IMG/VR virus record: IMGVR_UViG_3300035101_000063
Source: a virus
Direction: 5' to 3' (one strand)
DNA length: 26,943 nt
In this document: positions 3,149 through 26,057 of the stretch, piece by piece
Layout: each line of letters starts with the position of its first letter
Numbering within the stretch: the first letter of the stretch is position 1
The notes under the pieces: model-generated
What the model was told of the DNA's origin: nothing
What the model saw: the letters and a program-made list of their open reading frames with translations, nothing else
The model's database searches: none
Made by a program: the position numbers and the translations under genes

Positions 3149-4066
3149 TTATTCTTGACCAGAATCCCCTTCCGATTCAGAATCCCCTTCCGATTCATCA
3201 ACTAAATCTACCAGATATTCGTTACCGAATACAATTTGGTCCTTTTCTCCATCTACAGACTTAAACGCAATAATCCGATATCCCGTTATATCTTCCATGT
3301 GCCTAAATAAGGAAATCGTATCTATCAAATTTGTACTTGACGCTAAATAATCCATACATACTAGAGACAATGCATGACCATCTTTATCAGTCTCACCAAT
3401 ATCCTTGGCACGATTTATCGCATTTGTAACAACTTCATCTTGTCCACTATAGAGACTAAATGCCCTACGAACCAAAGTTTCTCCAGTAGATTGCTGTCCT
3501 TCTTGCCCATCTCCACCAGACCCATCTCCACCAGAAGTTATTCCTTTCTCTTCTTTTTTGGCTCGAGAAATCATTTCTTCTATTTGTTTAAATGTTTTAC
3601 CTTCCACACGCTTTTTCCAAGATTTAGCATTCTCCTTAACTACAAATCCCATCAGCAATCTGCATTTTGCCCATCCAATACCTCTGAAAAAAGCCTGCAT
3701 AGCAGGTGTCATATTTTCAAACCATGCTTGCAATTTTACAAGATATTGAGCCTTGCGAAGTGTAAAATCTAACTCTTGTTCAACATATTCTTTCCAAGAA
3801 TCAAAACCCCAAGAACGATATCTGTTATTAGTATAAACATCAGCTAAAACAACTCCTAACTCCCAATAATTTTCTTCAGCTTTATTTTTTAATTCCAACA
3901 CCTTTTCTCTGATATCAGCAAATTCAACATCAACAATATTGGCATTTTCTACATCACCTACCGAACCCGAACCATCATTGTTGTTAACAACGGTCAATCC
4001 TGCTTCGTTCACTTTTTGAATTCCTTGTTCATCGCTCATCGTACAGCCCTTTCTGTTGTCTGGCAC
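3149..4066 (-). CDS. hypothetical protein with DUF3102-like domain and acidic repeat C-terminus
   Basis: 305-aa minus ORF. Segment YWELGVVLADVYTNNRYRSWGFDSWKEYVEQEL is paralogous to a segment of the 25356..26057 product. Gly/Asp-rich linker. C-terminal ESEGDS x2 encoded by an 18-nt tandem repeat. Confidence 0.5.
   Translation of the reverse strand: MPDNRKGCTMSDEQGIQKVNEAGLTVVNNNDGSGSVGDVENANIVDVEFADIREKVLELKNKAEENYWELGVVLADVYTNNRYRSWGFDSWKEYVEQELDFTLRKAQYLVKLQAWFENMTPAMQAFFRGIGWAKCRLLMGFVVKENAKSWKKRVEGKTFKQIEEMISRAKKEEKGITSGGDGSGGDGQEGQQSTGETLVRRAFSLYSGQDEVVTNAINRAKDIGETDKDGHALSLVCMDYLASSTNLIDTISLFRHMEDITGYRIIAFKSVDGEKDQIVFGNEYLVDLVDESEGDSESEGDSGQE
3161..3196. repeat. 18-nt tandem repeat x2 (AGAATCCCCTTCCGATTC) encoding ESEGDS-ESEGDS
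   Basis: Direct reading; in-frame in the 3' end of the 3149..4066 gene. Confidence 0.8.
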
Positions 4067-4642: not shown

Positions 4643-5680
4643 TTATTTTTTACGTCTATATCCTTTAGGAAAACAAATATCTCTACCAGGACAATATTTA
4701 GGTCTACCCTTACTCTTTAACTGACAATCTTGAAGTCTATCGAATCTATCCTCTAACCATCCATACAAGGACGCCTCATCCTTGAAAAAAGGCTTACCGC
4801 CCTCTACCTCCATTTTATATTTATCGCACATCCTGACAGCTTCTACACACATCAACGCTAATCTTTTCAATCTCTCAACAATACTTTCATCATATAAAAT
4901 CTGATGTTCCATTAATGATGACTTAAAATATGGTACTTCTTTAAATTTATAACCTATACGTGACCTATGAATACCAGTAGCCCACATTCCTAATTGCACT
5001 TGATTAACATGATCTATCCTTGCAGCACCACCTAAACATGGGTCCAAGTCATCCCTTGCTGTTACTTTCTCTGTTTTGAGCTCAAAAACTTCTTCTTCAT
5101 CATCAATCAAAAGTATCGCATCCAATTTTGATACTATACGATACTTTAACATCCTGATTTTCACCTCATCATATTCCCAATCTTTACCTTCCGGCTTGGT
5201 ACCCCAACCCCTAACAATATGACGATCTTCATCATCATTTACTTGATTCCAAAAACTAGACCTAACAAGTTTAAAAATTTTATGCTCAAAATCTTTACCG
5301 ATTGGAACCTCTAGTGGAAAATATTTTTTCCATGCACCTAAAAATTTTACACCCAAACTGGGTAAAGCTGACTTTTGAAATACAGAATGAACGGCTTTAC
5401 CGTATTCCATATTCCAAAGTCCTTCAGCATTTACGATATCATTTATTTTAACAAAAGACTTAATAGCACATAATCTAGGACACCAATATTTTGTACCAGA
5501 AGCATAAAGCCAAAATTCTTTCCATGTTTCATCTTGTGGAACTAATGTCGCTAATCTACTATCAGAGTTATTCTTACTCCATTTTTCTAATAATAAATCT
5601 TGAACACTTGTAGAACGAACAATTGTAAAATTTTCTTTAGCTTCATCAATACTTTTTTTACATATAACATTTCCTAACAT
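4643..5680 (-). CDS. PD-(D/E)XK nuclease, Cas4/RecB-like with Cys cluster
   Basis: Segments ILLIDDEEEVFELKTEK (D...ExK) and QVQLGMW (QhxxY/W-like). One N-terminal Cys pair plus C-terminal Cys (CVEAVRMC ... CPGRDIC) resemble the Fe-S arrangement of Cas4/AddB nucleases. Strong GGAGG SD. Confidence 0.45.
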   Translation of the reverse strand: MLGNVICKKSIDEAKENFTIVRSTSVQDLLLEKWSKNNSDSRLATLVPQDETWKEFWLYASGTKYWCPRLCAIKSFVKINDIVNAEGLWNMEYGKAVHSVFQKSALPSLGVKFLGAWKKYFPLEVPIGKDFEHKIFKLVRSSFWNQVNDDEDRHIVRGWGTKPEGKDWEYDEVKIRMLKYRIVSKLDAILLIDDEEEVFELKTEKVTARDDLDPCLGGAARIDHVNQVQLGMWATGIHRSRIGYKFKEVPYFKSSLMEHQILYDESIVERLKRLALMCVEAVRMCDKYKMEVEGGKPFFKDEASLYGWLEDRFDRLQDCQLKSKGRPKYCPGRDICFPKGYRRKK

Positions 5681-5746
5681 TCAGCCTCCTGACAACAATC
5701 AGCATTTACACAATACTACACAAAAAATAGTTAGTAAACCAAAAAT

Positions 5747-6118
5747 TTAATTAATATCACCCCTTCTTCCGGCATCCTTGTCCATTTCCTTAATAAAAAA
5801 CTTTATATGAAAAACCTTATCCTCATTAGAAATACCAGGATAAAGCTGTCTCATCTGCCCCACCCAATGCTCACCATTGGCATATCCATCCATTTCTGAA
5901 ATAATCGGATCTCTCCTAAACATACCAACAGTACCGGGTCTAACCGTCTGCACTTCTATTTTAGCGAATGGCATATTTCTTTGACCATCTATAAATTTTG
6001 AAGTCAAAACAATTTCCCCTCCCCTAACATGTGGACAATTATCACCATATTTCCTAACAATACCACAAGCCTTACCATCCATAATCTGTTTTGTCTCAAA
6101 TCTTGTACATGCAAACAT
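5747..6118 (-). CDS. hypothetical protein (123 aa), possibly ASCH/PUA-like
   Basis: Minus ORF with AAAGGA SD; preceded 21 nt upstream by the CGAACTCGAGTTCG palindrome. Family assignment is weak. Confidence 0.4.
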   Translation of the reverse strand: MFACTRFETKQIMDGKACGIVRKYGDNCPHVRGGEIVLTSKFIDGQRNMPFAKIEVQTVRPGTVGMFRRDPIISEMDGYANGEHWVGQMRQLYPGISNEDKVFHIKFFIKEMDKDAGRRGDIN

Positions 6119-8591: not shown

Positions 8592-8962
8592 TTTGTCAAC
8601 CTTCTAAATTCCTCAAAAACCCTTGCTGGAATCATTACCCAATCCCTATCGGTGGTACTATCAAATTCCCCTCCCTTTATTTCTATAGCCAATGCAGGTT
8701 CGCAATTATTATCTTCTGCTTCTCTGGAAATTTTCTTTAACCAGTCCCATTTAACAGAAATACTTGCTTTTTTAGTTTGTTTTGCCTCAATCAAGAATTC
8801 TTTATCTCTCACATAAACATCCCTGACATCTCCTTTTGAATGATAATTAGCACCAGACCCACCAACACGCTTACCACCAAATCTTTTAGCTAACCGATTC
8901 TCTTGTTCTGTTGGACTTCCACCACTACTACCAATATATCTCCTAGGTTCATATTTTCCCAT
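8588..8962 (-). CDS. hypothetical protein, candidate small PD-(D/E)XK (VRR-NUC-like) nuclease
   Basis: GDVRD...FLIEAKQTKK resembles the D...ExK core; size about 120 aa is typical of VRR-NUC. Weak call. Confidence 0.3.
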   Translation of the reverse strand: MGKYEPRRYIGSSGGSPTEQENRLAKRFGGKRVGGSGANYHSKGDVRDVYVRDKEFLIEAKQTKKASISVKWDWLKKISREAEDNNCEPALAIEIKGGEFDSTTDRDWVMIPARVFEEFRRLTK

Positions 8963-10202
8963 CTAATATCCTATCCAATAAAATCTTCCTAAGCTTTTCG
9001 AAAGTAGCTGGTTCTTCTATTCTAGCCATAGCATCCTTTTTTCTAGTATATTTTTCATTACCAACATACCATGTCTTATTTGAACCATCTCCAACTTCTC
9101 TATACATATTTAATTTAGAAGCCATACCAATAACATATTTTAATTCATCTATTTTTCCAGCATTATCCCCTGCAATCCACATATAATAACTACCCATTTG
9201 TTTTGCAGGTGCCGTCTTGTTCTTTTCGGTCTTATAACTAACTTTCACTCTAGTACCAATTTCAGACATCAAATCCTTACCAAAAATATCCTTATCTTGT
9301 TCCTCTTTAGTCCATTTTGATGTCCAAAAATTTACAATTGTACTAGCAAAAAACAATTGTCCTTTTCCTGATGTCATCACACGATTATCACCGAATGATG
9401 ACCCACCAATTTTTTCCCTAAATTGATTTATCCAAATATGTGTTGGTGCTCTACCTTTTGACTTCATAACAGAAGTAATACTAGATAACACTTTCCTAAT
9501 AAACTTATTCATCAGTCTCGCTTGCAATCCTTGTTGCCATTCAGCTAAACTATTCTCAATTTCTGCAGATGGTGTCATAGCAGCAATAGAATCAAGCACA
9601 AACAAATCAATTTCTCCAGTTCTTACTAAACTCTCATATATATCACATACCTCCTCTGTTGTTTCAGCTTGAACATACAATAATCTACGAATATCAACAC
9701 CCAATTTTGCAGCCCATACCTTATCAAATGTCCCTTCTGGGTCAAAAAATACAACACTAAATTCTTCATACGAATTTTCTTTATATCTTTCTAATCGTTT
9801 TTTAAAATCAGATTCTTTTTCATCATCATACTTAATAGGCTTAAAAATCCCACGACTAAAACAATCACACTTTCCTTCTGCACTCCAGTATGTATCACCT
9901 TCTGAATCAACAACTTCTGAAACACTCAAATCTTTTACTGGCCTATAACAATTTGCACATATATTTTGAGCAAGTCCTATTACCCGTAAAGCATTTGTTG
10001 TCTTTCCAGATGATTCATCTCCAGCAAAAATAGTTGTTCTACCAACAGCAATACCACCACCTAATGCCCTATCAAAAGATAAACTACCTGTTGACAATCT
10101 AGGTATATTCTTAACAGAACCAGCACTACCAATTGTTCCAGAACCATGTTCTTTGTTGATCAATCTCTTAAGCACTGAAAGGCCAGGACGCTTTGTGTCC
10201 AT
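8949..10202 (-). CDS. recA: RecA-family recombinase with about 68-aa Cys4 insertion
   Basis: IPRLSTGSLSFDRALGGGIAVGRTTIFAGDESSGKTT aligns with E. coli RecA [35 protein letters not shown]. Later FFDPEGTFDKVWAAKLGVDIRRLLYVQAETTEE...LDSIAAMTPSAEIE aligns with RecA [24 protein letters not shown]...VDSVAALTPKAEIE. Between them lies a CANCYRP...GKCDC insertion. Confidence 0.8.
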   Translation of the reverse strand: MDTKRPGLSVLKRLINKEHGSGTIGSAGSVKNIPRLSTGSLSFDRALGGGIAVGRTTIFAGDESSGKTTNALRVIGLAQNICANCYRPVKDLSVSEVVDSEGDTYWSAEGKCDCFSRGIFKPIKYDDEKESDFKKRLERYKENSYEEFSVVFFDPEGTFDKVWAAKLGVDIRRLLYVQAETTEEVCDIYESLVRTGEIDLFVLDSIAAMTPSAEIENSLAEWQQGLQARLMNKFIRKVLSSITSVMKSKGRAPTHIWINQFREKIGGSSFGDNRVMTSGKGQLFFASTIVNFWTSKWTKEEQDKDIFGKDLMSEIGTRVKVSYKTEKNKTAPAKQMGSYYMWIAGDNAGKIDELKYVIGMASKLNMYREVGDGSNKTWYVGNEKYTRKKDAMARIEEPATFEKLRKILLDRILDGKI

Positions 10203-10203
10203 T

Positions 10204-10794
10204 TCATATCCCTTTGTCGCTTTCTAATGATTTAATTCTAGAAAATTGGTCTGCAATATCAGAAGCCATATCATCAGATATAACCTCAAATATTTCTACA
10301 ATATTATCATTATCAGAAATTGGTATCTCTTCCATTGTATCTACCTGATGAGATTCATATTCTTTAGCTCCCTTTAACGTCAAACCATATGAAATAAATA
10401 TATTCCTATCCATACAGGCATTCAAAATACCAATTGTATTTGCTTCAAATTGTGGCTTATATTCTTTTTCTTCAAGTCCATATTCCTCCCTTTTAAGCAT
10501 TTCCAAAATAAAATCTTTAACAGCTCTTTTAACAATAGAATAATCATCACTATTATCAAATTTCACTTTAACAGAAAGCTTAATCCTACCAAACTCATAT
10601 CTTCTAAGCGCAATTGTTCTTCCTGCACTAAATCCATAAGAAAACAAATCAGTGCGATTAGAATGAATACCTATCTTACCGCTTCCGTTATGAGAACCTG
10701 AATATCCTTTTGGTTCACCTTTGTATCTTACTAATTTAGACTTACAAACATTACCTTCATTTTCAATTTTCATCTTTTCCTCCTCATTCAACAA
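10204..10794 (-). CDS. hypothetical protein (196 aa)
   Basis: Minus ORF; TGAAATG coupling to RecA gene. Confidence 0.45.
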   Translation of the reverse strand: MLNEEEKMKIENEGNVCKSKLVRYKGEPKGYSGSHNGSGKIGIHSNRTDLFSYGFSAGRTIALRRYEFGRIKLSVKVKFDNSDDYSIVKRAVKDFILEMLKREEYGLEEKEYKPQFEANTIGILNACMDRNIFISYGLTLKGAKEYESHQVDTMEEIPISDNDNIVEIFEVISDDMASDIADQFSRIKSLESDKGI

Positions 10795-11374: not shown

Positions 11375-12889
11375 TCAAGACACCTCTGTTCCAATTTTCC
11401 TATAGAACTTCTGTCTGCGCCTCCATTTCGGTAAAAGCTGGGGAATATTCTCATCTACGACATCAACTATAATAGGTTTAGGTTTTTCTTTACAATTACC
11501 AACTCTCCATGGACAATAATGTTCGCATTTTTCCTTGTCTTGATAACACCACCTTCTAGCGCGACCAACTATTTGTTCTATATCTCCCATAGGCATCGAA
11601 AGAACCAACACATCAAGCGCTTCAACATCAAATCCTTCCTCGATGCTTTGCTTAGTTGCAAAAATTACATTAGCACGTTCTGCTTTATCAAAATCAGCTT
11701 CTGTTCTTTTGACCATTTTAGGGTCACCTTTTTTATGCCTACTATTTGATTCTTCCCATACTTCTCCAGAAAACCATTCACCAGTACAAAAATCAATAGT
11801 AGGTTCAAATGGCAAATCAAGGTCAAATAAAGAATTCATCAACATGTCACTCATAAGTTTCAAATGATAAAGTCTTTCACTAACAACTATTATTTTACGA
11901 CCATTTTGAACAGCCAATACTAATTGATCAACAATATCTTTTGCTCTAAACTGATCCTTTCCAAGCTGAGTTAAAATTTGAGCACTATTCAAATTATCAA
12001 CTGATACATAATAATTACCCCTTCTTATCGGTTTCAAACATGAATAAGTCTTTAACACTCTCAAACCAGGCACTTGCGCCTTAGTTTTAGCAGAATATGT
12101 AACATCACTTATATGATTAAAAAATACGTCCTGTGCACCATCTTTTCGTCTAGGAGTTGCTGTTAAACCAACTCTCCATGCAGCATTAAATCTAGGTAAA
12201 ACAAATGACCATGAAGAAGCAGCTATTCTATGACATTCATCACTAATAACAATTCCGAATTCCGATTTATATATCCTTTCTGGATACTTATGACTATCTT
12301 TATCCCTCACTAAAGATTGAAGCATTGCAATAACAAAATCACAATCCTCAAATTCACATTTATTCTGACGAATAATTCCAACTTTAGCATCTGGCATAAA
12401 TTTTTTTATTCTATTCTTCCATTGTTTTAAAAAAAACTCTTTATGAACAATAATTAATGTCTTACGGCCAACACGTCTAGCAAACTCCAATGAACACGCT
12501 GTTTTTCCAAAAGCGCATCCTGCTTTCAACAAAAAACCATCCCACTTTTTACCCTCCATTCTAGCAAGAAATGTTCTTATTACAGCTTCCTGTTCAATGA
12601 AATTTCCAGTTGCCTGATATCTAGTAGTAAAGGCTGACATTTTACTACCATATGATATTTTTAATATTTCATCATGTTCCTTTGTAACATTTTTCCTATA
12701 CCATGCTCTAGGAACACCAATGAAATCCTCCTTTTCATCATACATATAAATAGGCTTTGGATCTGCCTTTGTAGCAATATCTGTCGTCTTCTTAGGATAT
12801 ATCGTTAATAATTCTTTTATATTTAAAATCTGTTGAGCAGACAAATCATCAATTGGCAACCAAACATTTCCACTTACAACAACTTTCAT
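11375..12889 (-). CDS. SF2 DExH-box DNA helicase (UvsW/type III res-like)
   Basis: Walker A AGCAFGKTACS, DECH box (VISDECHRIAA), arginine finger QIVGRARR; length 504 aa comparable to T4 UvsW. C-terminal Cys cluster. Confidence 0.8.
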   Translation of the reverse strand: MKVVVSGNVWLPIDDLSAQQILNIKELLTIYPKKTTDIATKADPKPIYMYDEKEDFIGVPRAWYRKNVTKEHDEILKISYGSKMSAFTTRYQATGNFIEQEAVIRTFLARMEGKKWDGFLLKAGCAFGKTACSLEFARRVGRKTLIIVHKEFFLKQWKNRIKKFMPDAKVGIIRQNKCEFEDCDFVIAMLQSLVRDKDSHKYPERIYKSEFGIVISDECHRIAASSWSFVLPRFNAAWRVGLTATPRRKDGAQDVFFNHISDVTYSAKTKAQVPGLRVLKTYSCLKPIRRGNYYVSVDNLNSAQILTQLGKDQFRAKDIVDQLVLAVQNGRKIIVVSERLYHLKLMSDMLMNSLFDLDLPFEPTIDFCTGEWFSGEVWEESNSRHKKGDPKMVKRTEADFDKAERANVIFATKQSIEEGFDVEALDVLVLSMPMGDIEQIVGRARRWCYQDKEKCEHYCPWRVGNCKEKPKPIIVDVVDENIPQLLPKWRRRQKFYRKIGTEVS

Positions 12890-12898
12890 AATACAACC

Positions 12899-13909
12899 TC
12901 AAAACGGTATATCATCATCATTGGGACCATTAGGTCCTACATATTGACCACTATCACCAAAACCAACTCCATACGTTTTAGGAGGCTCTCTCATGCCAGT
13001 TTGCATATTACTACGTACCATCCCTTGTCTTTGTCCATCATGAAACGATTTATTACCTCTATTATCTCCCCATCCTACAAGCTCATCAAGTTTTGCCTGA
13101 TAATCATCAACATCAATATCAAATACCCCTTTTTTCGAATCTGGATCTGTATATACTGGTATATCCAATTTTAAATATTCTGGATCTGCACCCCATCTAA
13201 CAAGATATTCCTCAAAGTGTTCAGGTGAAATTCTATCTACAAAAGACCAATCATTACCTACAATAGGTTCTTTTTTTCCAGTTCTAGTTGTATCCCATAT
13301 TGTACCAGTCAAATCCTCAATACCATGTTGTTGCCTTATTTCTGCTAACCTTCTCTGTAATGTCTTCATAACACCTGGATTATCAACAGATCCTCTTTTA
13401 GCACCTAGTAAAACTCTCTGAAAAGACCTCTCAAATCGGTCACCATTATCATTCTCCCAATATTCATGATGCAATCTTACCCTATTTCCTCTCCGTTCAA
13501 CCTGTCCCATGTCAATAACTGGTAAAAATCCAATAAAATATGCAAAATCCTTTCCACCCTTTTTAGAACAAACAGGACATGGTATCTTTGAGATACCATT
13601 TTTTTCTAAACAAATTGCTGTAAATGCTTCAAAAATATTATAAGCATTTTTAAATCTCCATAAACTATGTTCATAAATATTAAAAGGAGAACCATCCAAA
13701 AAAAGCACTCGTTTAGTAGCAGATGAACCAGGATTTACTAAATTTGGTTTTTTATCCGTACCCTTTGGTGTTGGAATTGAAAATCTAAATCTATAGAGTC
13801 TTTCATTTTCAGTAATCTTATTCCCACTATCACTACTGTCATAATCGCTATCATAACTATCATATTCATCTGGGTCTCCCCATCCTTTACTATAAGTTCC
13901 AATGCCCAT
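12899..13909 (-). CDS. putative ssDNA-binding protein (gp32-like Zn site) with SSB-type C-terminal tip DDDIPF
   Basis: H-x19-C-x10-C-x2-C arrangement (YEH...AIC...PCPVC) resembles the T4 gp32 Zn site. Long Gly/Gln-rich disordered linker ends ...GPNGPNDDDIPF, like bacterial SSB. Track start 13966 lacks SD and abuts the palindrome. The ATG at 13909 has GGAGAAAAAATG, so it is preferred. Confidence 0.4.
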   Translation of the reverse strand: MGIGTYSKGWGDPDEYDSYDSDYDSSDSGNKITENERLYRFRFSIPTPKGTDKKPNLVNPGSSATKRVLFLDGSPFNIYEHSLWRFKNAYNIFEAFTAICLEKNGISKIPCPVCSKKGGKDFAYFIGFLPVIDMGQVERRGNRVRLHHEYWENDNGDRFERSFQRVLLGAKRGSVDNPGVMKTLQRRLAEIRQQHGIEDLTGTIWDTTRTGKKEPIVGNDWSFVDRISPEHFEEYLVRWGADPEYLKLDIPVYTDPDSKKGVFDIDVDDYQAKLDELVGWGDNRGNKSFHDGQRQGMVRSNMQTGMREPPKTYGVGFGDSGQYVGPNGPNDDDIPF

Positions 13910-13969
13910 TTTTTCTCCATTTCGTGATCCTATATCACCATCTTTTTCGTGCTCTATTAGCACCATTTA

Positions 13970-14139: not shown

Positions 14140-15486
14140 CTAAAATGGTATCCCCTCTTCCTCTTCATTATTTTCCTCTTCTTCAATTTCACCAAACTCC
14201 ATTCTATCAAAATCCCAATGAACCTTTATCTCTGGTTTCTTATATTGACCTCTACGAAGTTTTAAATTTTTAAATTTCATTACTTTATCATCTTTATCAT
14301 CTTTATTTTGTATTAATGCATAAACAGCATGAACATCCTGCCCAATCTCATCAGCTAATGCAATTGTTCCAAGCCTTGCCCCTCCCCCCTTCTTCTCCGA
14401 AAGCTCAGCAGTCCTATTCTGCTGTGCAAAACCTATCGCAGCATAGCCAAGCTCCTTGCAACTTCGCTTCATCCATCCAAGAGCCTCCACGGCTCTTTCA
14501 CGACGATCCCCTTTAATATGTAGGTCATAAATCGAATCAACAGCAACAAGCTCAGCATTACAAGCACGAATTGCAGCATCTATACCACGCGGACTCAAAT
14601 CATCATCAGAATCCATAATCCACAATCCATCCTTACCAGCCTCACCATTAATTGTATTTACAAATTTTTGCTCCATAACAGTTGGAAGTTGACCAGTAAT
14701 AACACTATGGTAACTAACATCAGAATGGATAGTAAAAAATCTCTCAGCTATCTCATCTTTACTCATTTCTGGTGAAACAACCAAGACACGTTTATCTTTC
14801 ATCCAGGCATGTCTACCACATATAACACAGACGAACGTTTTCCCAACTGAAGGTCGAGCAACAAACATAGTAACAGTTTTGGGCCATGCACCTGCCGTCA
14901 TATCATCTATTGTTTTCCACGGAAATGGAATACCCCTATATCCATCAGCAGCCTTTCTATAATTCTCAAGAACCTTTCCTCCAATATCCAATAAATTATG
15001 TGGCATTCTATGCCTAGAAAGGTCCTGTGCTGCATTCAACAGGGATTCAAGACTAGGAGATAAAGAATCTATACCTTCTGCTTTAAATCCATCATAAACA
15101 ACTTTCTGAGCATTATAAATTACACGACGTATAGCACTAGCTTCCCTAACTATATTTGCATAATGACCCACATTTGATGGTGCAGATACAAAATCTGTCA
15201 ATTGCGATAATGCAATTGCACCACCTATATTTTTTAATTGACCTTGCTCTCTTAATCTATTTCCTAATGTGACATGATCAACAGGTATCCCAGCCTCGAA
15301 CAAAGAATACATGCCATAAAAAATTATTCTATTGGAATTTATATAAAAATCTTCTTCATTTACATTAGCAAAAACTTCACCCCAACAATCATTATTCAAA
15401 AGAACAGATCCAAGAACAGCATTTTCAGCTTCTTCATTGTATGGTGGTATATTAGGTCCACCTTTAGAATCGCAAATATTGCTCAT
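14140..15486 (-). CDS. dnaB: DnaB-like replicative DNA helicase with acidic ...EEEEGIPF C-terminal tip
   Basis: N-terminal domain (PPYNEEAENAVLGSVLLNNDCWGEV...NRIIFYGM...IPVDHVTLGNRL...GGAIALSQL), Walker A ARPSVGKTFVCV, RecA-like C-terminal domain. Appended EEEENNEEEEGIPF tail. Confidence 0.85.
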   Translation of the reverse strand: MSNICDSKGGPNIPPYNEEAENAVLGSVLLNNDCWGEVFANVNEEDFYINSNRIIFYGMYSLFEAGIPVDHVTLGNRLREQGQLKNIGGAIALSQLTDFVSAPSNVGHYANIVREASAIRRVIYNAQKVVYDGFKAEGIDSLSPSLESLLNAAQDLSRHRMPHNLLDIGGKVLENYRKAADGYRGIPFPWKTIDDMTAGAWPKTVTMFVARPSVGKTFVCVICGRHAWMKDKRVLVVSPEMSKDEIAERFFTIHSDVSYHSVITGQLPTVMEQKFVNTINGEAGKDGLWIMDSDDDLSPRGIDAAIRACNAELVAVDSIYDLHIKGDRRERAVEALGWMKRSCKELGYAAIGFAQQNRTAELSEKKGGGARLGTIALADEIGQDVHAVYALIQNKDDKDDKVMKFKNLKLRRGQYKKPEIKVHWDFDRMEFGEIEEEENNEEEEGIPF

Positions 15487-15633: not shown

Positions 15634-16329
15634 TCAATTACCACTTAATATAGACTTTAATCTATCTACAGAGCCATCTCTCTTATTATCACCAATAACA
15701 GGAACAGGAATTGTACATTCTCCTAAAGCATGAATAGTAGATTTTTTCAAATCAAGTTCTTCTTGCCAACGTTTTGGAGAAATATTTGAAGTAATTATAG
15801 TAACTTTTTTATTTGCATTTCTAGACCTAATTAATTCATCAAAAATCGTTGCACCAAAACCAGTATTATCCATTATACCCTTTCCAAAATCATCAATTAC
15901 TAATACATCTACATCTTTAGAACGTTCCCAATATGTCTCATCATCATCAAAATATTCTTTACTAGCAACCAATCGTTTTAAATCAGCAGCTTCTATAAAT
16001 AAAACAGTATTACCACGTCTGCGAAATTCTTTTGCTAAAACAACAGAAGCACATGATTTCCCAGTTCCATTATCACCATAAAATATAAAACCACCACCTT
16101 CTTTTCTCATTTTAGCCATATTTAAAATATATTTTTCAACCATACTTTTAAGACTATCTTGTCCATCTACATAAATATCTGTAAGATTATAAAAACTTGC
16201 TTTCCAATAACGTTTAGGTATATGCATTCGCTCCAAATCATTAGCACATAAATCGCGCCGAAAAGGAACATTAGAAAACATTTTACCAGCCAATTTTTGT
16301 TGACCCATCAAGTTCTGGATCATATTCAC
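15634..16329 (-). CDS. DnaC/IstB-like AAA+ helicase loader
   Basis: Walker A GDNGTGKSCASVVLAKEF, Walker B VLVIDDFG, size 231 aa, located immediately downstream of DnaB-like gene. Confidence 0.7.
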   Translation of the reverse strand: MNMIQNLMGQQKLAGKMFSNVPFRRDLCANDLERMHIPKRYWKASFYNLTDIYVDGQDSLKSMVEKYILNMAKMRKEGGGFIFYGDNGTGKSCASVVLAKEFRRRGNTVLFIEAADLKRLVASKEYFDDDETYWERSKDVDVLVIDDFGKGIMDNTGFGATIFDELIRSRNANKKVTIITSNISPKRWQEELDLKKSTIHALGECTIPVPVIGDNKRDGSVDRLKSILSGN

Positions 16330-16903: not shown

Positions 16904-17153
16904 ATTCTCTACCTTCCAACAAATTCACAGAAGATGCCTGTAAATCCTTCAGTGTTCCATTTATTTCAACCAATAATTCAACCCAATCCTCCTTATAATT
17001 GATACCACACAAACGTTTGCAGTCATTAGAAAAAGCAACCGCTTCAAAATCATTCATTTCAACAATACGGTCTCTCCAGGATGTTACTTTTCTAATCCAT
17101 CCGATACCATATTTTGTTTCGACTTTATCGCCGATGAAGTATTTTCGAGCCAT
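16887..17153 (-). CDS. hypothetical protein (88 aa)
   Basis: Minus ORF with AAGGGA SD at proper spacing; start lies 70 nt inside the upstream gene. Confidence 0.4.
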   Translation of the reverse strand: MARKYFIGDKVETKYGIGWIRKVTSWRDRIVEMNDFEAVAFSNDCKRLCGINYKEDWVELLVEINGTLKDLQASSVNLLEGREYDSGK

Positions 17154-17596
17154 TCTAATCCCTTAATTTTCCTAGCATCATCTACTAGAATCTCTCTATG
17201 GTCATTCATCCAAATTGGAGCACGAAAAATAACATCATTCCAAGACCAACCATCAAGCACTAACAACTCAGCAGCAATCACATTATATAATATATTATTT
17301 TGTTCAGATATTAATTTAGCACTATTTAATATATCTCTTAATCTATCATAAAATAATACAAAATGGTCTTCATTAGGTCTATTTAATATAATACTATTTC
17401 CATCATCTAATAAGATTTCAATAGAATTCACACCAAATGCTTCTGATAATTCAAAAACAACTTCACCCATTCCAAATAAAATTAAATCTTCTAAATCAAA
17501 TTTATCATTAAATTCATCATTAAATTCATCATTAAATTCATCATTAAATTCATCATTAACATGTTTTATAGGAAATAATAAATTATTTTCTTTCAT
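17084..17596 (-). CDS. hypothetical protein with N-terminal (NDEF)x4-5 tandem repeat
   Basis: Minus ORF; repeat encoded by 12-nt tandem array. Confidence 0.45.
   Translation of the reverse strand: MKENNLLFPIKHVNDEFNDEFNDEFNDEFNDKFDLEDLILFGMGEVVFELSEAFGVNSIEILLDDGNSIILNRPNEDHFVLFYDRLRDILNSAKLISEQNNILYNVIAAELLVLDGWSWNDVIFRAPIWMNDHREILVDDARKIKGLEWLENTSSAIKSKQNMVSDGLEK
17498..17557. repeat. 12-nt tandem repeat AAATTCATCATT x5 (first copy imperfect) encoding DEFN repeats
   Basis: Direct reading. Confidence 0.85.
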
Positions 17597-21386: not shown

Positions 21387-22037
21387 TTAATCCACTAAGA
21401 CAGGAGGTGCCCAAGGAGACCTATAAAATCTATTTCTAAATTTCATACCATTTGATGGAACAATCCTAACCCAATATCTCCCAGGTTTATCCATTTTGCC
21501 ACCGAAATGATCAGCACCTAACACAGGATTCGGTTTTCCACCTTTTGACCAGTCTTCTAAAGCAGATAAAATATCATTCCACATGTCTCTATGATTACTC
21601 CATTTAAGTCTATGTGGCCATCCAACCGGTTTCTTGCCTTTTAAATTCAAATTCAAAATCCATCTTCTGGTATGCGTGCTACGATACTTTATAGCAGCAG
21701 AATATTTCCTTACAACGTCAACAAATTTCATCTTTGAATTTTTAGCACCTTTCCATCTTGTAGCATATACCCAAGCAATTCCTATACATTCATCAACAGC
21801 ATCAAAACCAGCCTCACCAGCACAACTTCTAGCAACCCATAATTTTACACTATCATCCCATTCTGTCTTAGGAATCGGCCTATTCTTTGAAACAGAAACA
21901 TTAGAAATACCATCTATATTACTATCAGCATTAACAACAAAACTACAAACAAACATTGAAAAACAAAACAAAAACTTTATAAATTTCAAAAACATATATA
22001 TCCTCCTATTCAAAACTGCAACCAAAGTATAAAACAC
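21387..22037 (-). CDS. secreted SleB-like cell-wall hydrolase (Hydrolase_2 family); candidate lysin
   Basis: Hydrophobic signal-like N-terminus (MFLKFIKFLFCFSMFVCSFVVNA). LWVARSCAGEAGFDAVDECIGIAWVYATRW and KFVDVVRKYSAAI match the Hydrolase_2 motifs (L.AR.i..EA..E...gq.AVa.Vv.NR ... v..Vv.q..QFsa). True start may be the internal Met at about 21995. Confidence 0.5.
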   Translation of the reverse strand: MFYTLVAVLNRRIYMFLKFIKFLFCFSMFVCSFVVNADSNIDGISNVSVSKNRPIPKTEWDDSVKLWVARSCAGEAGFDAVDECIGIAWVYATRWKGAKNSKMKFVDVVRKYSAAIKYRSTHTRRWILNLNLKGKKPVGWPHRLKWSNHRDMWNDILSALEDWSKGGKPNPVLGADHFGGKMDKPGRYWVRIVPSNGMKFRNRFYRSPWAPPVLVD

Positions 22038-22058: not shown

Positions 22059-22403
22059 CTATCTTCTACGCTTTTTTCTACTCTCCATCAATTTTGATAC
22101 TTCAAACATAGCATTTTGGTCTTGATCATCAAAATCTATTTCATCACACTGATCAGACAAATACTTACTAACCATAATTTCGCATGCATGCTTTATTTTA
22201 TAATCCCATTCAATTGACTTCCATTTTGTCATTTGTTTCTTATGACAAGATGGACATAGGCGGAATCTGATAATTTCAGCCTTCTCATCCACTCCTTTCC
22301 CGTAAACAGTCATATTAGTAGAAATCATATCATCTCTAAGTACGTATTTTTCACACCCACGACAAAATCCATATACTTTATTATAATCTTTCATTTTACC
22401 CAC
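22059..22403 (-). CDS. Zn-ribbon protein (CRGC...CPSC), 114 aa, basic C-terminus
   Basis: Two CxxC pairs spaced about 35 aa apart; minus ORF. Confidence 0.45.
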   Translation of the reverse strand: MGKMKDYNKVYGFCRGCEKYVLRDDMISTNMTVYGKGVDEKAEIIRFRLCPSCHKKQMTKWKSIEWDYKIKHACEIMVSKYLSDQCDEIDFDDQDQNAMFEVSKLMESRKKRRR

Positions 22404-22619
22404 TTGTTAACCATACCAGTATAAAAAAAATAATAAGACCTATCACTATTCTAAATTGAAATGAAAAGTCCCTACTATTTGGCACTAATATTTTACCATC
22501 AAATCCACGTATCCAATTATCATCTTTCATTTTAACAACATTTCAATCTTTCCAAAACACATATACTTCGACTTGCATCCCGCAAAGTATCTATTTAATA
22601 GATAACCAAAACAACAAAA

Positions 22620-22967
22620 TTATTCTTTATCTTCAACTTCGTCTTCAACTTCGTCTTCAACTTCGTCTTCAACTTCGTCTTCAACTATACCTAAAATATC
22701 ACTCCAAGGTATAACAACACGTTTCTCACGACCAAAATTTATCTCTGTACCTGAATATCTTCCAATAAAAATCCTATCACCAACTTTTACATCAGGAATA
22801 ACAAGTGTTCCATCAGACATTACCCTACCAGGACCAACAGCCAAAACAACAGCAGTATCTGGAACTTCTTTAGTATTCAAAGGAAGTACAATACCACCAG
22901 GTGATTTCTTTTCCGCTGGTTCATCTCTCTCCACAAATACATTATCATGAAACGGTTTTATTTTCAT
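22620..22967 (-). CDS. groES: co-chaperonin GroES (Hsp10) homologue with (EDEV)n acidic repeat tail
   Basis: MKIKPFHDNVFVERDEPAEKKSPGGIVLP...AVVLAVGPGR...VKVGDRIFIGRYSGTEI...VIPWSDILGIV aligns along its whole length with GroES (MNIRPLHDRVIVKR.E.E.KSAGGIVL...GEVLAVGNGR...VKVGDIVIF..Y.G........ESDILAIV). AAGGA SD 8 nt upstream of the ATG at 22967; the track Met at 22982 lies inside the SD. Confidence 0.8.
   Translation of the reverse strand: MKIKPFHDNVFVERDEPAEKKSPGGIVLPLNTKEVPDTAVVLAVGPGRVMSDGTLVIPDVKVGDRIFIGRYSGTEINFGREKRVVIPWSDILGIVEDEVEDEVEDEVEDEVEDKE
22631..22686. repeat. 12-nt tandem repeat CTTCAACTTCGT x about 4.7 encoding the EDEV repeats of the GroES tail
   Basis: Direct reading. Confidence 0.85.
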
Positions 22968-23206
22968 CTTATATCCTTCCATTTCTTAATCAACTGTCCT
23001 ATTTCCATAACACGATTACTATCTTCAACAGTCAATCTTGACGAAATAGAACGACAACCTTTTTTCTTCTTTGCTCCTGCAACAAATATTACATCATCAA
23101 CAGAAATTACTCCATTATCAATTGCTTCTTTACCGAAATTTTCAACCAAACCAAATGACTCAAGCAACCCAACAGCCATATTATCACCAAAATCAATCCT
23201 CAACAT
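22964..23206 (-). CDS. hypothetical protein (80 aa)
   Basis: Minus ORF, ATGA-coupled to groES-like gene. Confidence 0.4.
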   Translation of the reverse strand: MLRIDFGDNMAVGLLESFGLVENFGKEAIDNGVISVDDVIFVAGAKKKKGCRSISSRLTVEDSNRVMEIGQLIKKWKDIR

Positions 23207-23444: not shown

Positions 23445-24593
23445 TCATACGTCAATATCATCAAATAATCGCATCTGTCTTTTTCTCATAGCTGCATTAA
23501 TCCTTGATTTTGCTAATTCAAAATACTCCCTATCAATTTCTATACCAACAAAATTAAATCCCTCCATCACTGCCCCTCTACCAGTCGACCCAGATCCCAT
23601 AAATGGGTCCAAAATAACCCCATCCATTTGAGTTACAAGCCTACACAAATATTTCATTAAATCTGTAGGCTTTACTGTTTCATGAAAATTCCCAATAAAT
23701 TCTCTATTTCTACAATCACTCAATAACATTCCATGTTTAAATTGTGGTCTACTACTATTCAACCCGTCATCACGGTCTTTTTTCTTGGCTTTTGAACAAT
23801 AAAAAAATCTAGCTTTATTGCCCATCAACCTAACTGGACATGCTGGATGACATTTCCAATCTTCTATCGTTTCAAATCCATTTTCATCACCATGTCTAAT
23901 CCAAGACCCTCTATAATCAAATTGAGAATATACATTTTTCCCTGGTTTAGATGGTTCAAGTCCAGATAATGAACCACTTTTATTTCTTACCTTTTTATAT
24001 CCTAAAAATTCACAATCAGGATGATGAGATAAAATAATGTTTGATGGCCATCTACCATCTTCATTTGGAATATATACTACTCCAGCCTTTTTCATAAATG
24101 TACCTATACCTATATAATCACTCTTTCTTTCTTTAAACTTAATATTATCATCAGTTAATATTCTAGAATCATCTATATTTAACCCACCAGTATTATAAAC
24201 TCCAATATTATCTTTAATAGAACCAATATATTTTTTCCTTGCCAAACAAATAGGTTCATTAGCTGGCTTTAAAGAATATTTGCTCTTAGGAAATCCATTA
24301 CCAAATATCCATTGAATTTGGTCCAATATTTCAAATCCAGCATCTTCTATATTCACAACAAGTCTGTGATATGTTCTGACACCACCAAATGAAAGTAAAT
24401 GTCCTCCAGGTTTTAATACTCTCAAACACTCTTTCCATATATCAACAGATGGAACACTATAATCCCATTTTTTTGACATAAATTTAATGCCATATGGTGG
24501 GTCTGTAACTATAGAATCTATACAATTATCTTCAAACTCTTTAATAACTGATAAACATTCACCACAAAACAAATCAACTGGTTTCTCAAACAT
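23445..24593 (-). CDS. DNA methyltransferase, beta-class N6-adenine/N4-cytosine (N6_N4_Mtase family), orphan
   Basis: Motif IV DPPYG near N-terminus (IDSIVTDPPYGIKF). Motif I FxGxG near C-terminus (LDPFMGSGSTGRGA). No restriction partner in view. Confidence 0.75.
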   Translation of the reverse strand: MFEKPVDLFCGECLSVIKEFEDNCIDSIVTDPPYGIKFMSKKWDYSVPSVDIWKECLRVLKPGGHLLSFGGVRTYHRLVVNIEDAGFEILDQIQWIFGNGFPKSKYSLKPANEPICLARKKYIGSIKDNIGVYNTGGLNIDDSRILTDDNIKFKERKSDYIGIGTFMKKAGVVYIPNEDGRWPSNIILSHHPDCEFLGYKKVRNKSGSLSGLEPSKPGKNVYSQFDYRGSWIRHGDENGFETIEDWKCHPACPVRLMGNKARFFYCSKAKKKDRDDGLNSSRPQFKHGMLLSDCRNREFIGNFHETVKPTDLMKYLCRLVTQMDGVILDPFMGSGSTGRGAVMEGFNFVGIEIDREYFELAKSRINAAMRKRQMRLFDDIDV

Positions 24594-24609
24594 ATAAATC
24601 CACCATAAT

Positions 24610-25356
24610 TCAAAATAAACCTAATTGCCTACCACCTTTATAACCATCTATTTGATAATAAACAACTTCACTACTTTTCCGCCTTTCTCCATCCTTGACA
24701 ATAGTACTATTAGAATCACACAAACGATTAAAATCAAGCCATTTAGCACCATAATTTTCACAAACTATAACTTGACCATGTCTTTCAATCGACCAATTAG
24801 CCAATTTTTCATAATTTAAACGACTAGAACCATAATGATAATATTTACCTGCATCAACATATGGTGGGTCTATAAACCATGTAGCATTTTCATTTTCTAT
24901 TTCAACATACGATTTATTAACTATTTTCCAATGTCTTATATACCTCAACTGACGTGCTATCCTATTCTTAATATATATACTCCAAAAAGATTTAGGTCGT
25001 GTACCACCTTTCATCCATTTAGATGGCAATTTACAAGGATGGTCAGACCCTTTACTCAACCAAAATCCTATCAAATATTTAGCACCTTCTGATACTGATA
25101 AATCATCAACATTATCAAAATCTGTAGGCAAAGAAAGAATATCTGATTCACTAGCATTAATCAAATAATCCCATAATATACAAATTTTTTCATCTAAATC
25201 ATAAAGAAGAACATCCTTATAATAATACCTAACTGAATACCCAGCAGAGCCAGCAAATGGTTCTATTATTCTATTATATAATGGAGCATCATATGATAAT
25301 GAAAGCCTCCATTTGCCACCATAATATGTAAAAAACGGAAACAAATTAGATGACAT
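24610..25356 (-). CDS. Dam-like N6-adenine DNA methyltransferase (D12 class, alpha group), orphan
   Basis: N-terminal YYGGKWRL (Dam YxGGK signature), motif I EPFAGSAG, then motif IV DPPY (TWFIDPPYVDAG). Confidence 0.75.
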   Translation of the reverse strand: MSSNLFPFFTYYGGKWRLSLSYDAPLYNRIIEPFAGSAGYSVRYYYKDVLLYDLDEKICILWDYLINASESDILSLPTDFDNVDDLSVSEGAKYLIGFWLSKGSDHPCKLPSKWMKGGTRPKSFWSIYIKNRIARQLRYIRHWKIVNKSYVEIENENATWFIDPPYVDAGKYYHYGSSRLNYEKLANWSIERHGQVIVCENYGAKWLDFNRLCDSNSTIVKDGERRKSSEVVYYQIDGYKGGRQLGLF

Positions 25357-26057
25357 TAAGAAACCCTATTTAATTTATCTTCTCCTCTATATAAAACCGT
25401 CAAAACATCAGATATTTCCTGACTTATTGTAACTCCAGATTCTTTTGACTTCTCAACTATCTTTAAATAAACATCAACTGGAATTGCACAACGTACGTAT
25501 TTAGTATTATTCCTAATATTACCAACATTTAAACCCAATTTATTAGAAACACTTTCATCATTTAATCTAATATTTCTCAAATACAAAATGGGGTCTTCTG
25601 TAAAATTCATCTCATCCATGAATTCATTTAACTCATCAACAGAAATACCTCTTTTTTTCAAACAATTTACCTTTTTAAGTTTCTGCTTATATTCAACCAT
25701 TACGTCATAAAATTTCTTTCCATTATTCATCTTATTATATTCATTTTTCCAATCTCTCCAGTTATCAGAATTTATAAGTTTGTAATACACATTCGTATAT
25801 GACCAAGGCATCGTTTCTATCCATTTTCTAGCAGCAACATTCTTAAATGACATTTTCCACTTATACAATACCATAGACATCTGCACTGTTCTACAAGTGC
25901 AGCGAAGTTCTCCACTACAAAAATCTTTAAACGAACTATACCCAATTTCTTCATATGTATTATTAGCCTTAATTTCTAATAAAACCTCCCCTAATTTCCA
26001 AAAAGAACGATTCATATCTTCTGATATTTTTTTAGCATATACTAACAATTTGTTCAT
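25356..26057 (-). CDS. hypothetical protein with DUF3102-like N-terminal domain (paralogous to the 3149..4066 product)
   Basis: SFWKLGEVLLEIKANNTYEEIGYSSFKDFCSGEL parallels YWELGVVLADVYTNNRYRSWGFDSWKEYVEQEL of the other gene. ATGA overlap with the Dam-like gene. Confidence 0.45.
   Translation of the reverse strand: MNKLLVYAKKISEDMNRSFWKLGEVLLEIKANNTYEEIGYSSFKDFCSGELRCTCRTVQMSMVLYKWKMSFKNVAARKWIETMPWSYTNVYYKLINSDNWRDWKNEYNKMNNGKKFYDVMVEYKQKLKKVNCLKKRGISVDELNEFMDEMNFTEDPILYLRNIRLNDESVSNKLGLNVGNIRNNTKYVRCAIPVDVYLKIVEKSKESGVTISQEISDVLTVLYRGEDKLNRVS

Follow-up and report, generated by a model that had tools for sequence, protein, structure and literature searches.

Co-chaperonins of the GroES (Cpn10) type and their substitutes have been described from a number of viruses. 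A survey of viromes by Marine et al. 2017 (PMC5649160) yielded 1479 full-length GroES sequences of viral origin, and GroES-only viruses were common; the alignment in that survey spans E. coli positions 5-72 only, and the C-terminal end lies outside it. The pelagiphages HTVC023P and HTVC027P carry GroES, and the cultured phages BcepSaruman, RAS14 and Asteriusvirus UE-S1 have an annotated GroES with no groEL within 3 kb on either side. T4 gp31 and RB49 CocO are phage-encoded lids for a GroEL-type chaperonin in which the roof hairpin of GroES is missing (PMC5649160). H. pylori HspA has a GroES core with a C-terminal extension of ~20-30 residues that is His/Cys-rich, nickel-binding and disulfide-structured (PMC5116745). 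Here a GroES gene is described from the IMG/VR virus record IMGVR_UViG_3300035101_000063, a stretch of 26,943 nucleotides that was analysed as a whole (the window). A stand-alone true GroES in a phage is an already recognised class and is not surprising. What is new in this locus is a polyacidic, strain-polymorphic C-terminal tail, which is a clade-specific variant. The favoured reading, which is considered fairly probable as a whole, is a functional phage GroES that would act on host GroEL and carry a disordered, external acidic tail. The features of the gene and its immediate surroundings are as follows, with lengths in amino acids (aa) and gene boundaries taken from the open reading frames (ORFs).

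22620-22967, minus strand: GroES/Cpn10 co-chaperonin gene, 115 aa plus stop (ORF, Pfam PF00166, PHROG 3188, PDB sequence and fold matches, selection on the core)
22683-22967, minus strand: Cpn10 beta-barrel core, residues 1-95 (AlphaFold and Foldseek)
22863-22922, minus strand: mobile loop, residues 16-35, EPAEKKSPGGIVLPLNTKEV (AlphaFold; aligned to E. coli GroES together with 16 homologues)
22884-22898, minus strand: GroEL-binding Gly and IVL tripeptide, putative by homology, residues 24-28, within the mobile loop
22791-22835, minus strand: roof beta-hairpin, residues 45-59, GPGRVMSDGTLVIPD (aligned to E. coli GroES without deletion)
22623-22682, minus strand: polyacidic C-terminal tail, residues 96-115, (EDEV)4-EDKE, 15 of 20 residues Asp or Glu (translation; AlphaFold)
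22630-22686: perfect 12-nt tandem repeat, plus-strand unit TCTTCAACTTCG, coding-strand unit GAAGACGAAGTT, 4.8 copies (Tandem Repeats Finder, 100% matches, score 114)
22974-22978, minus strand: Shine-Dalgarno-like AAGGA, 6 nt 5' of the ATG at 22967 (read from the sequence)
22964-23206, minus strand: 80-aa gene with no assigned function directly upstream of GroES, its TGA overlapping the GroES ATG as ATGA (ORF list)

The GroES ORF lies on the minus strand, a point that the preliminary description mentioned below had not stated. It opens with the ATG at 22967, closes with the stop codon at 22622-22620 and gives the 115-residue product MKIKPFHDNVFVERDEPAEKKSPGGIVLPLNTKEVPDTAVVLAVGPGRVMSDGTLVIPDVKVGDRIFIGRYSGTEINFGREKRVVIPWSDILGIVEDEVEDEVEDEVEDEVEDKE. 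This protein matches the Pfam Cpn10 model PF00166 over profile positions 1-93 of 93 (E=2.1e-24, 85.8 bits; the curated cut-off is 21.1 bits) and PHROG 3188, 'co-chaperonin GroES', with E=9e-23. The gp31-type PHROG 931, 'head morphogenesis', is reached with E=0.003 only. Solved GroES/Cpn10 chains in the PDB are matched by sequence with E values down to 5e-20. When the AlphaFold model was compared with the PDB by Foldseek, the top 29 matches were all GroES/Hsp10 chains from chaperonin complexes, with template modelling (TM) scores of 0.8-0.86 and E ~3e-9, and T4 gp31 was found with E=1.7e-3 at 18% identity. As judged from these agreeing matches, the window gene is confirmed as the bona fide phage-encoded GroES homologue that a preliminary description, made from the sequence alone, had taken it to be. 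That description had also assumed that phages mostly use non-homologous substitutes for GroES. True GroES is catalogued in viruses (PHROG 3188; PMC5649160) and is found in cultured phages as well, and the premise mirrors the history of T4 gp31 and CocO, not current knowledge.

The AlphaFold monomer model was built on 117 homologues. Its predicted local distance difference test (pLDDT) values are 87-95 in the core outside the mobile loop, ~57 in the mobile loop and below 50 in the C-terminal tail. The low value in the loop is expected because the mobile loop is flexible. The motif defined for this loop consists of a conserved Gly and, next to it, three small hydrophobic residues in contact with GroEL (PMC5649160), and G24-G25-I26-V27-L28 of the window protein aligns with G23-G24-I25-V26-L27 of E. 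coli GroES. G25 does not vary across E. coli GroES and the 16 homologues and I26 hardly does, and the position equivalent to Tyr71 is conserved in the window protein. The preliminary description had reported both the mobile loop and the C-terminal strand, and both are present; the last core strand reads SDILGIV, not SDILAIV as had been given, which is a trivial slip.

The similarities and differences to known systems can be followed through the same elements. The window protein is ~41% identical to E. coli GroES (PDB 1AON chain O) by structure alignment and 42% by sequence alignment, with a TM score of ~0.8, and it shares the GGIVL loop, the roof hairpin and the C-terminal strand SDIL(G/A)IV with this and other bacterial GroES proteins. 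Unlike E. coli groES, the window gene lies outside a groES-groEL operon, and its product is set apart by one extra residue before the loop, by the signatures PFHDN, PDT and PW, and by an acidic extension of 20 residues at the point where the E. coli protein stops, two residues past the last strand. The likeness to T4 gp31 and CocO is a functional analogy, that of a lid for a GroEL-type chaperonin encoded by a phage; in contrast to them the window protein has the roof hairpin and a strong GroES sequence match, and gp31 is only a remote structural relative. A further resemblance is to the stand-alone viral GroES proteins (PMC5649160; HTVC023P/HTVC027P; PHROG 3188), with which it shares membership of the true Cpn10 family, the lack of an adjacent groEL, the canonical loop, the roof hairpin and a presumed host partner. 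It differs from them in belonging to a separate uncultured family and in its polyacidic, length-polymorphic tail.

Two start codons are available to the gene. An in-frame ATG at 22982 would prepend MEGYK and is used by one public gene call. The ATG at 22967 is better supported because it is preceded by AAGGA at a distance of 6 nt, shares the ATGA with the stop codon of the preceding gene, and is the point at which both the relatives and the Pfam model begin. The 4-nt overlap between the 80-aa gene and GroES, together with the gene order, recurs in the related loci L002, L008 and L012, which suggests that GroES is translationally coupled to the upstream gene.

The relatives of this phage are found in metagenomes. 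A megablast of 25 kb of the window against GenBank gave no close relative, and the DnaB and RecA-like proteins are 25-36% identical at best to proteins of cultured phages. Locus L007 (JGI sample 3300036647) is 97.9% identical to the window over 6.9 kb, and a near-identical relative with the same GroES core as L007 lies on a contig of 165,799 bp (ENA ERZ27251469, k141_2770145). Contigs of 133-195 kb carry DnaB homologues with 50-60% identity. From these comparisons the phage belongs to a family without cultured members, the longest related contigs of which measure ~133-195 kb. Twelve GroES proteins from metagenomes, at ~55-99% identity, make up a clade that stands apart from cellular GroES, and outside it identity over the full core is at most 55% among the matches listed. 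The clade is marked by PFHDN, by one more residue ahead of the loop, by PDT behind it and by PW near the end. The closest cellular GroES is ~50% identical to the window protein, and GroES proteins of GenBank phages are at most ~44% identical. In IMG/VR the GroES matched only a 36%-identical protein on an unrelated 158-kb contig, and the flanks fetched for IMG/VR DnaB relatives (51-64% identity) contained no GroES. The 158-kb contig (L001, IMGVR_UViG_3300029288_007060) has its GroES at 9986-10294, with the mobile-loop glycines replaced (…DKDNVFYLP…), and there is no GroEL-sized ORF among those listed ~3 kb to either side.

The order of genes in the GroES region is a KTSC gene, the methyltransferases (in the closer relatives), two small genes, GroES, several small genes, the DnaC-like loader and DnaB. 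It is kept at GroES identities of 99%, 75% (L002-L004 and L008), 61% (L005), 59% (the P0280 contig) and 55% (L018). As a separate observation, L018 carries a gene with an IS605 OrfB (TnpB-type) domain at 4707-5984, ~2.5 kb upstream of GroES and inside the otherwise conserved early-region order. Over the 95-codon core, the ratio of nonsynonymous to synonymous substitutions per site (dN/dS, Nei-Gojobori) is 0.06-0.20 against relatives, at dS values of up to ~0.9. The GroES core is under purifying selection, and by these evolutionary measures the gene is clearly functional. The gene could instead be pictured as a recently captured host groES that is decaying or unexpressed, with the tail as read-through junk. 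A cellular origin at some time is plausible given the ~50% identity to the closest cellular GroES, but the dN/dS of the core rules out a decaying, recently captured host gene. Vertical retention in a conserved gene order down to 55% identity speaks against recent capture too, as does a clade that is 56-99% identical internally and at most ~55% identical to other GroES proteins. A ribosome-binding site and probable translational coupling exist, and every tail allele is in frame and ends in the same EDK[EK]. This explanation is given almost no credence.

The partner of the phage GroES must be considered next to its gene context. A tblastn search with the GroEL of Bacteroides phage DAC16 found no match in the window or in related loci, some of which extend 10 kb further upstream; together they cover ~14 kb upstream and ~22 kb downstream of GroES (~37 kb), so that the remark in the preliminary description that no groEL is in view holds over this range. 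GroES is not part of a layout with groEL next to it; its neighbours are small genes of unknown function and methyltransferases. The locus may belong with those of GroES-only viruses; its viral context is clear, and no groEL lies in the ~37 kb covered of a genome of ~166 kb. Host GroEL is quite probably the partner, because no groEL lies nearby, paired viral genes adjoin each other and GGIVL is kept.

Some viruses carry both groES and groEL (PMC5649160), and a phage GroEL encoded elsewhere in the ~166-kb genome would be another candidate partner. In Bacteroides phage DAC16 GroES is directly followed by GroEL, and the sequence covered is only ~37 kb of the present genome. The pairs in the survey (PMC5649160) and in DAC16 lie side by side, as GroES>GroEL or GroEL>GroES, and here no groEL is found within 22 kb downstream or 14 kb upstream. 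Moreover, in GroES from survey contigs with the order GroES>GroEL the loop glycine is mostly replaced by Asn or Ser (PMC5649160), in contrast to the window GroES, which keeps GGIVL. A phage-encoded GroEL as the partner is therefore very unlikely. The DAC16 genes are worth recording for themselves. DAC16_261 and DAC16_262 (MT074137.1, L017; 3001-3264 and 3278-4900) are both annotated as 'hypothetical protein'; the first is a GroES homologue and the second a 540-aa protein with a typical GroEL N-terminus. This cultured phage thus carries a groES-groEL pair that is unannotated.

It is a reasonable inference by analogy that host GroEL is re-tasked for phage proteins, as had been suggested in the preliminary description. 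The phage GroES would be expressed alongside the early and replication genes, coupled to the small upstream gene, and would assemble as a heptameric lid. Its conserved GGIVL mobile loops would dock on host GroEL, and the phage lid would supplement or replace host GroES, so that chaperonin capacity may be turned to phage proteins in the infected cell. The same mode of action is assumed for many marine GroES-only viruses, and it is that of T4 gp31 on E. coli GroEL.

The tail begins after the core at residue 96, and the GroES tail is predicted to be intrinsically disordered. Unlike the extension of HspA, it is without His or Cys and is made almost only of Asp, Glu and Val, and its length varies between strains. 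The repeat at 22630-22686 is the second strongest in the window, and the origin of the tail in a 12-nt tandem repeat, which had been proposed in the preliminary description, is borne out by its 4.8 perfect copies. The variation in repeat number that the same description had proposed to look for among related phages is found as well. Between the window and L007 there are 97 substitutions and three insertion or deletion events only. The GroES tail accounts for two of the three, of 3 nt and 9 nt, and the third, of 36 nt, equals exactly three units of the other 12-nt repeat at 17498-17559. That repeat lies in the ORF at 17084-17596 (minus strand) and has a near-perfect 12-nt unit in 5.2 copies, encoding (NDEF)n near the N-terminus of a 170-aa protein of unknown function.

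A cluster of proteins at >90% identity contains 13 sequences from several sources; with the tail of the window added to the count, it holds eight tail alleles of 11-20 aa on nearly invariant cores:

EDEDDIVEDKK, 11 aa
EDEVEDDIVEDKE, 13 aa
EDEDEVEDDIVEDKE, 15 aa
EDEDDIVEDDIVEDKK and EDEVEDEVENEVEDKE, 16 aa each
EDEVEDEVEDDIVEDKE, 17 aa
EDEDDIVEDEVEDDIVEDKK, 20 aa
EDEVEDEVEDEVEDEVEDKE, 20 aa, the allele of the window

The alleles differ through EDEV (12-nt) and DDIVE (15-nt) units that have been gained or lost. The longest pure EDEV array is that of the window, and its units are identical in nucleotides, which indicates that the expansion is recent. Assembly error is an unlikely source of the alleles because several of them are found on more than one contig and a single sequencing read is longer than the tract. 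The tail would be made and resized as units of 12 and 15 nt slip during replication, and selection would act on its acidic, soluble character and on having a tail, not on its exact sequence or length. The tail would probably tune solubility or electrostatics, and it may be nearly neutral. We are inclined, if narrowly, to regard it as a disordered, external, slippage-resized tail that is constrained in composition only.

A quite different account would place the function of the repeat in the DNA, for example as iteron-like sites near replication genes, with the acidic coding incidental. Five perfect direct 12-mers do lie in a replication-gene region, and some phages, such as phage lambda, keep origin repeats inside coding sequence. 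The repeat unit is already different in the 97.9%-identical strain, however, and the tail shows no repetition in relatives at 75% identity; the feature that is conserved is the acidic composition of the protein. A role of the repeat at the DNA level was rejected, as its DNA is not conserved in close relatives. Neither an RNA family nor a tRNA or terminator-like site falls on the repeat, and an iteron-like or RNA role is unlikely. A function at the DNA level is barely credible.

Tails that are acidic but unrelated in sequence occur in more distant members of the clade. P0002 and P0003 have non-repetitive tails of 31-32 aa, and in other branches P0004 ends in ENDVVEND, P0121 in DRESESE, and P0125 and P0280 have tails of 31 aa. 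The proteome of the window contains 15.1% Asp plus Glu, and the tails are enriched over it with P from 3e-9 to 2e-2. Strongly acidic C-termini are found in 3 of the 42 ORFs of the window, GroES being the most extreme. Acidic C-termini as a genome-wide habit are on this count mostly rejected, though slippage of a 12-nt unit is shared with one other gene. Among 282 sampled Cpn10 homologues, tails that reach 7 aa or more and consist to 40% or more of Asp or Glu are confined to the clade except for one case of 10 aa, and the usual extension of cellular GroES is ~10 residues long, mildly basic and ends in ...KKKAA. Long 'tails' in a 50%-identity representative library were discounted, since they are mostly frameshift or read-through artefacts or fusions to a GroEL N-terminus. 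In the searchable literature no description of acidic GroES tails was found.

The position of the tail on the ring is suggested by work on other GroES proteins. Small-angle X-ray scattering envelopes of H. pylori HspA show seven extruded structures, which are its 27-residue C-terminal domain (PMC5116745). Covalent head-to-tail concatamers of GroES still function with GroEL (PMC5780408). It follows from these concatamers that the C-terminus must be near the N-terminus of the next subunit on the periphery of the ring. GroES with C-terminal tags or with an added C-terminal cysteine label is routinely used and stays functional. The preliminary description had considered that the tail might alter the properties of the cage. 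This is unlikely, since C-terminal extensions of GroES point outward in HspA and the concatamers work (PMC5116745; PMC5780408), and by analogy the tail most likely lies outside the folding cage. The tails would bring ~100 additional negative charges to each heptamer near the GroEL-GroES rim, with plausible effects on the electrostatics of binding and release, on solubility or on contacts with basic proteins.

Several points weigh against the favoured reading and concern both of its parts. For the tail, six members of the clade (P0005 and P0007-P0011) end two to four residues past the core, and the tail of P0006 is basic; from these members it follows that the tail is not essential for co-chaperonin function. 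The tail has persisted over a path of dS ~0.8, for which a rough neutral probability is 0.02-0.2. This persistence and the presence of acidic tails in several branches hint at a specific role beyond that of a by-product. For the partner, the search for groEL spans ~37 kb of ~166 kb, and a distant phage groEL is possible. Heptamer formation and GroEL binding are presumed from the GroES family, the model being that of a monomer, and compatibility with host GroEL is likewise presumed. Depending on the allele, 6-14 single-base routes lead to a stop codon in each tail. The persistence of the tail in spite of these routes is suggestive of selection to keep a tail, but not decisive.

The tail may also be a selected module with a second function, of which each GroES ring would present seven copies. 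Candidate roles are those of an electrostatic decoy (mimicking DNA, as the preliminary description had proposed, or the tail of single-stranded DNA-binding protein, SSB), of a binder of divalent cations or of a recruiter of basic phage clients, and its variation in length would be tuning or an arms race and not neutral slippage. Unrelated acidic tails in at least four branches of the clade, and almost nowhere else among the 282 homologues, fit such a role, as does an excess of Asp and Glu far above the proteome background. The ends of the tail (EDE... and ...VEDK) are common to lineages separated by dS ~0.8, the tail has outlived many one-step nonsense opportunities, and the nickel-binding domain B of H. 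pylori HspA is a precedent for a functional GroES tail. On the other hand, the tails share no conserved motif, and there is no hydrophobic tip like the IPF of the SSB-like tails in the same window. Their length spreads over 11-20 aa among near-identical strains, and the clade includes the tail-less members and the basic-tailed one. Slippage alone explains the polymorphism, and an unrelated 12-nt repeat in the window behaves likewise. We regard a second function as unlikely, and as distinctly less likely still the stronger proposal that the slippage-prone tail is a selected tunable module outside the lid whose strain-level length changes are adaptive, serving as a decoy for host proteins that bind DNA or SSB tails or as an aid to outcompete host GroES on GroEL.

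The locus adds one more lineage, that of uncultured phages with contigs of ~133-195 kb, to the phages that bring their own GroES. In this lineage GroES is old, has stayed in the same neighbourhood and is under selection, which supports the idea that the supply of lids limits chaperonin use in infection. A ring co-chaperonin tolerates, and perhaps benefits from, 11-32 extra acidic residues per subunit, and the natural tail alleles are a ready length series. If it is true that the tail has a specific target, GroES would be known to serve as the scaffold of an additional function in a second case, H. pylori HspA being the first. The tail does not alter the understanding of how phages hijack chaperonins.

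All credible genes of the window lie on the minus strand. Its G+C content is 30-36%, and the coding strand has a strong excess of G over C. The genes with recognisable products include:

8949-10202, minus strand: UvsX/RecA-like recombinase
11375-12889, minus strand: superfamily-2 helicase
14140-15486, minus strand: DnaB-type helicase
15634-16329, minus strand: DnaC-like loader
23445-25356, minus strand: two DNA methyltransferases, just upstream of GroES

Further products are a Holliday-junction resolvase-like protein, an RNA ligase, a DUF5131 protein and a KH-domain protein. As read from these genes, the window is the early/replication module of a tailed phage. The small genes next to GroES matched no Pfam or PHROG family, and scans of the window gave no tRNA, Rfam family or terminator-like site near GroES. 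Promoter-like matches were only ~2 times the shuffled expectation and are not interpreted. Just downstream of GroES, a 44-aa ORF at 22396-22530 (minus strand) has a hydrophobic C-terminal half (IVIGLIIFFILVWLTSG), and its counterpart is called as a gene of 44-45 aa at the same position in L002, L007, L012 and L013; its product is probably a conserved small membrane protein. The 216-aa protein at 21387-22037 (minus strand) has a signal-peptide-like N-terminus and no Pfam or PHROG match. Its stretch WVARSCAGEAG...IAWVY resembles SleB-type cell-wall hydrolases, which is an impression by eye only.

Variations at the C-termini of the replication proteins were also observed. The DnaB-type helicase ends in an acidic stretch and GIPF (EEEENNEEEEGIPF). 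Ten of the 12 DnaB homologues inspected (46-91% identity, among P0284-P0353) end in an acidic run and [IV]PF, such as DDIPF, DEIPF, DDDIPF and PVPF, and the two closest homologues end in ...DIGF and ...DTGF instead. These endings resemble the C-terminal tip of bacterial SSB (DDDIPF), and an SSB-type tip on a helicase looks unusual. The bacterial SSB tip docks on many replication and repair proteins. The 355-aa protein at 12899-13966 (minus strand) has a zinc-ribbon-like CPVC motif, an acidic, Ser-rich N-terminal region and the C-terminus ...NDDDIPF, which is the SSB tip. It is probably the single-strand DNA-binding protein of the phage, yet it has no Pfam match and only a weak match to a PHROG of unknown function. 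At the acidic C-terminus of a 305-aa protein (3149-4066, minus strand), an 18-nt repeat at 3160-3197 encodes SEGDSE twice. This protein and a 233-aa protein (25356-26057, minus strand) both match PHROG 17202, of unknown function, and the two may be paralogues ~22 kb apart.

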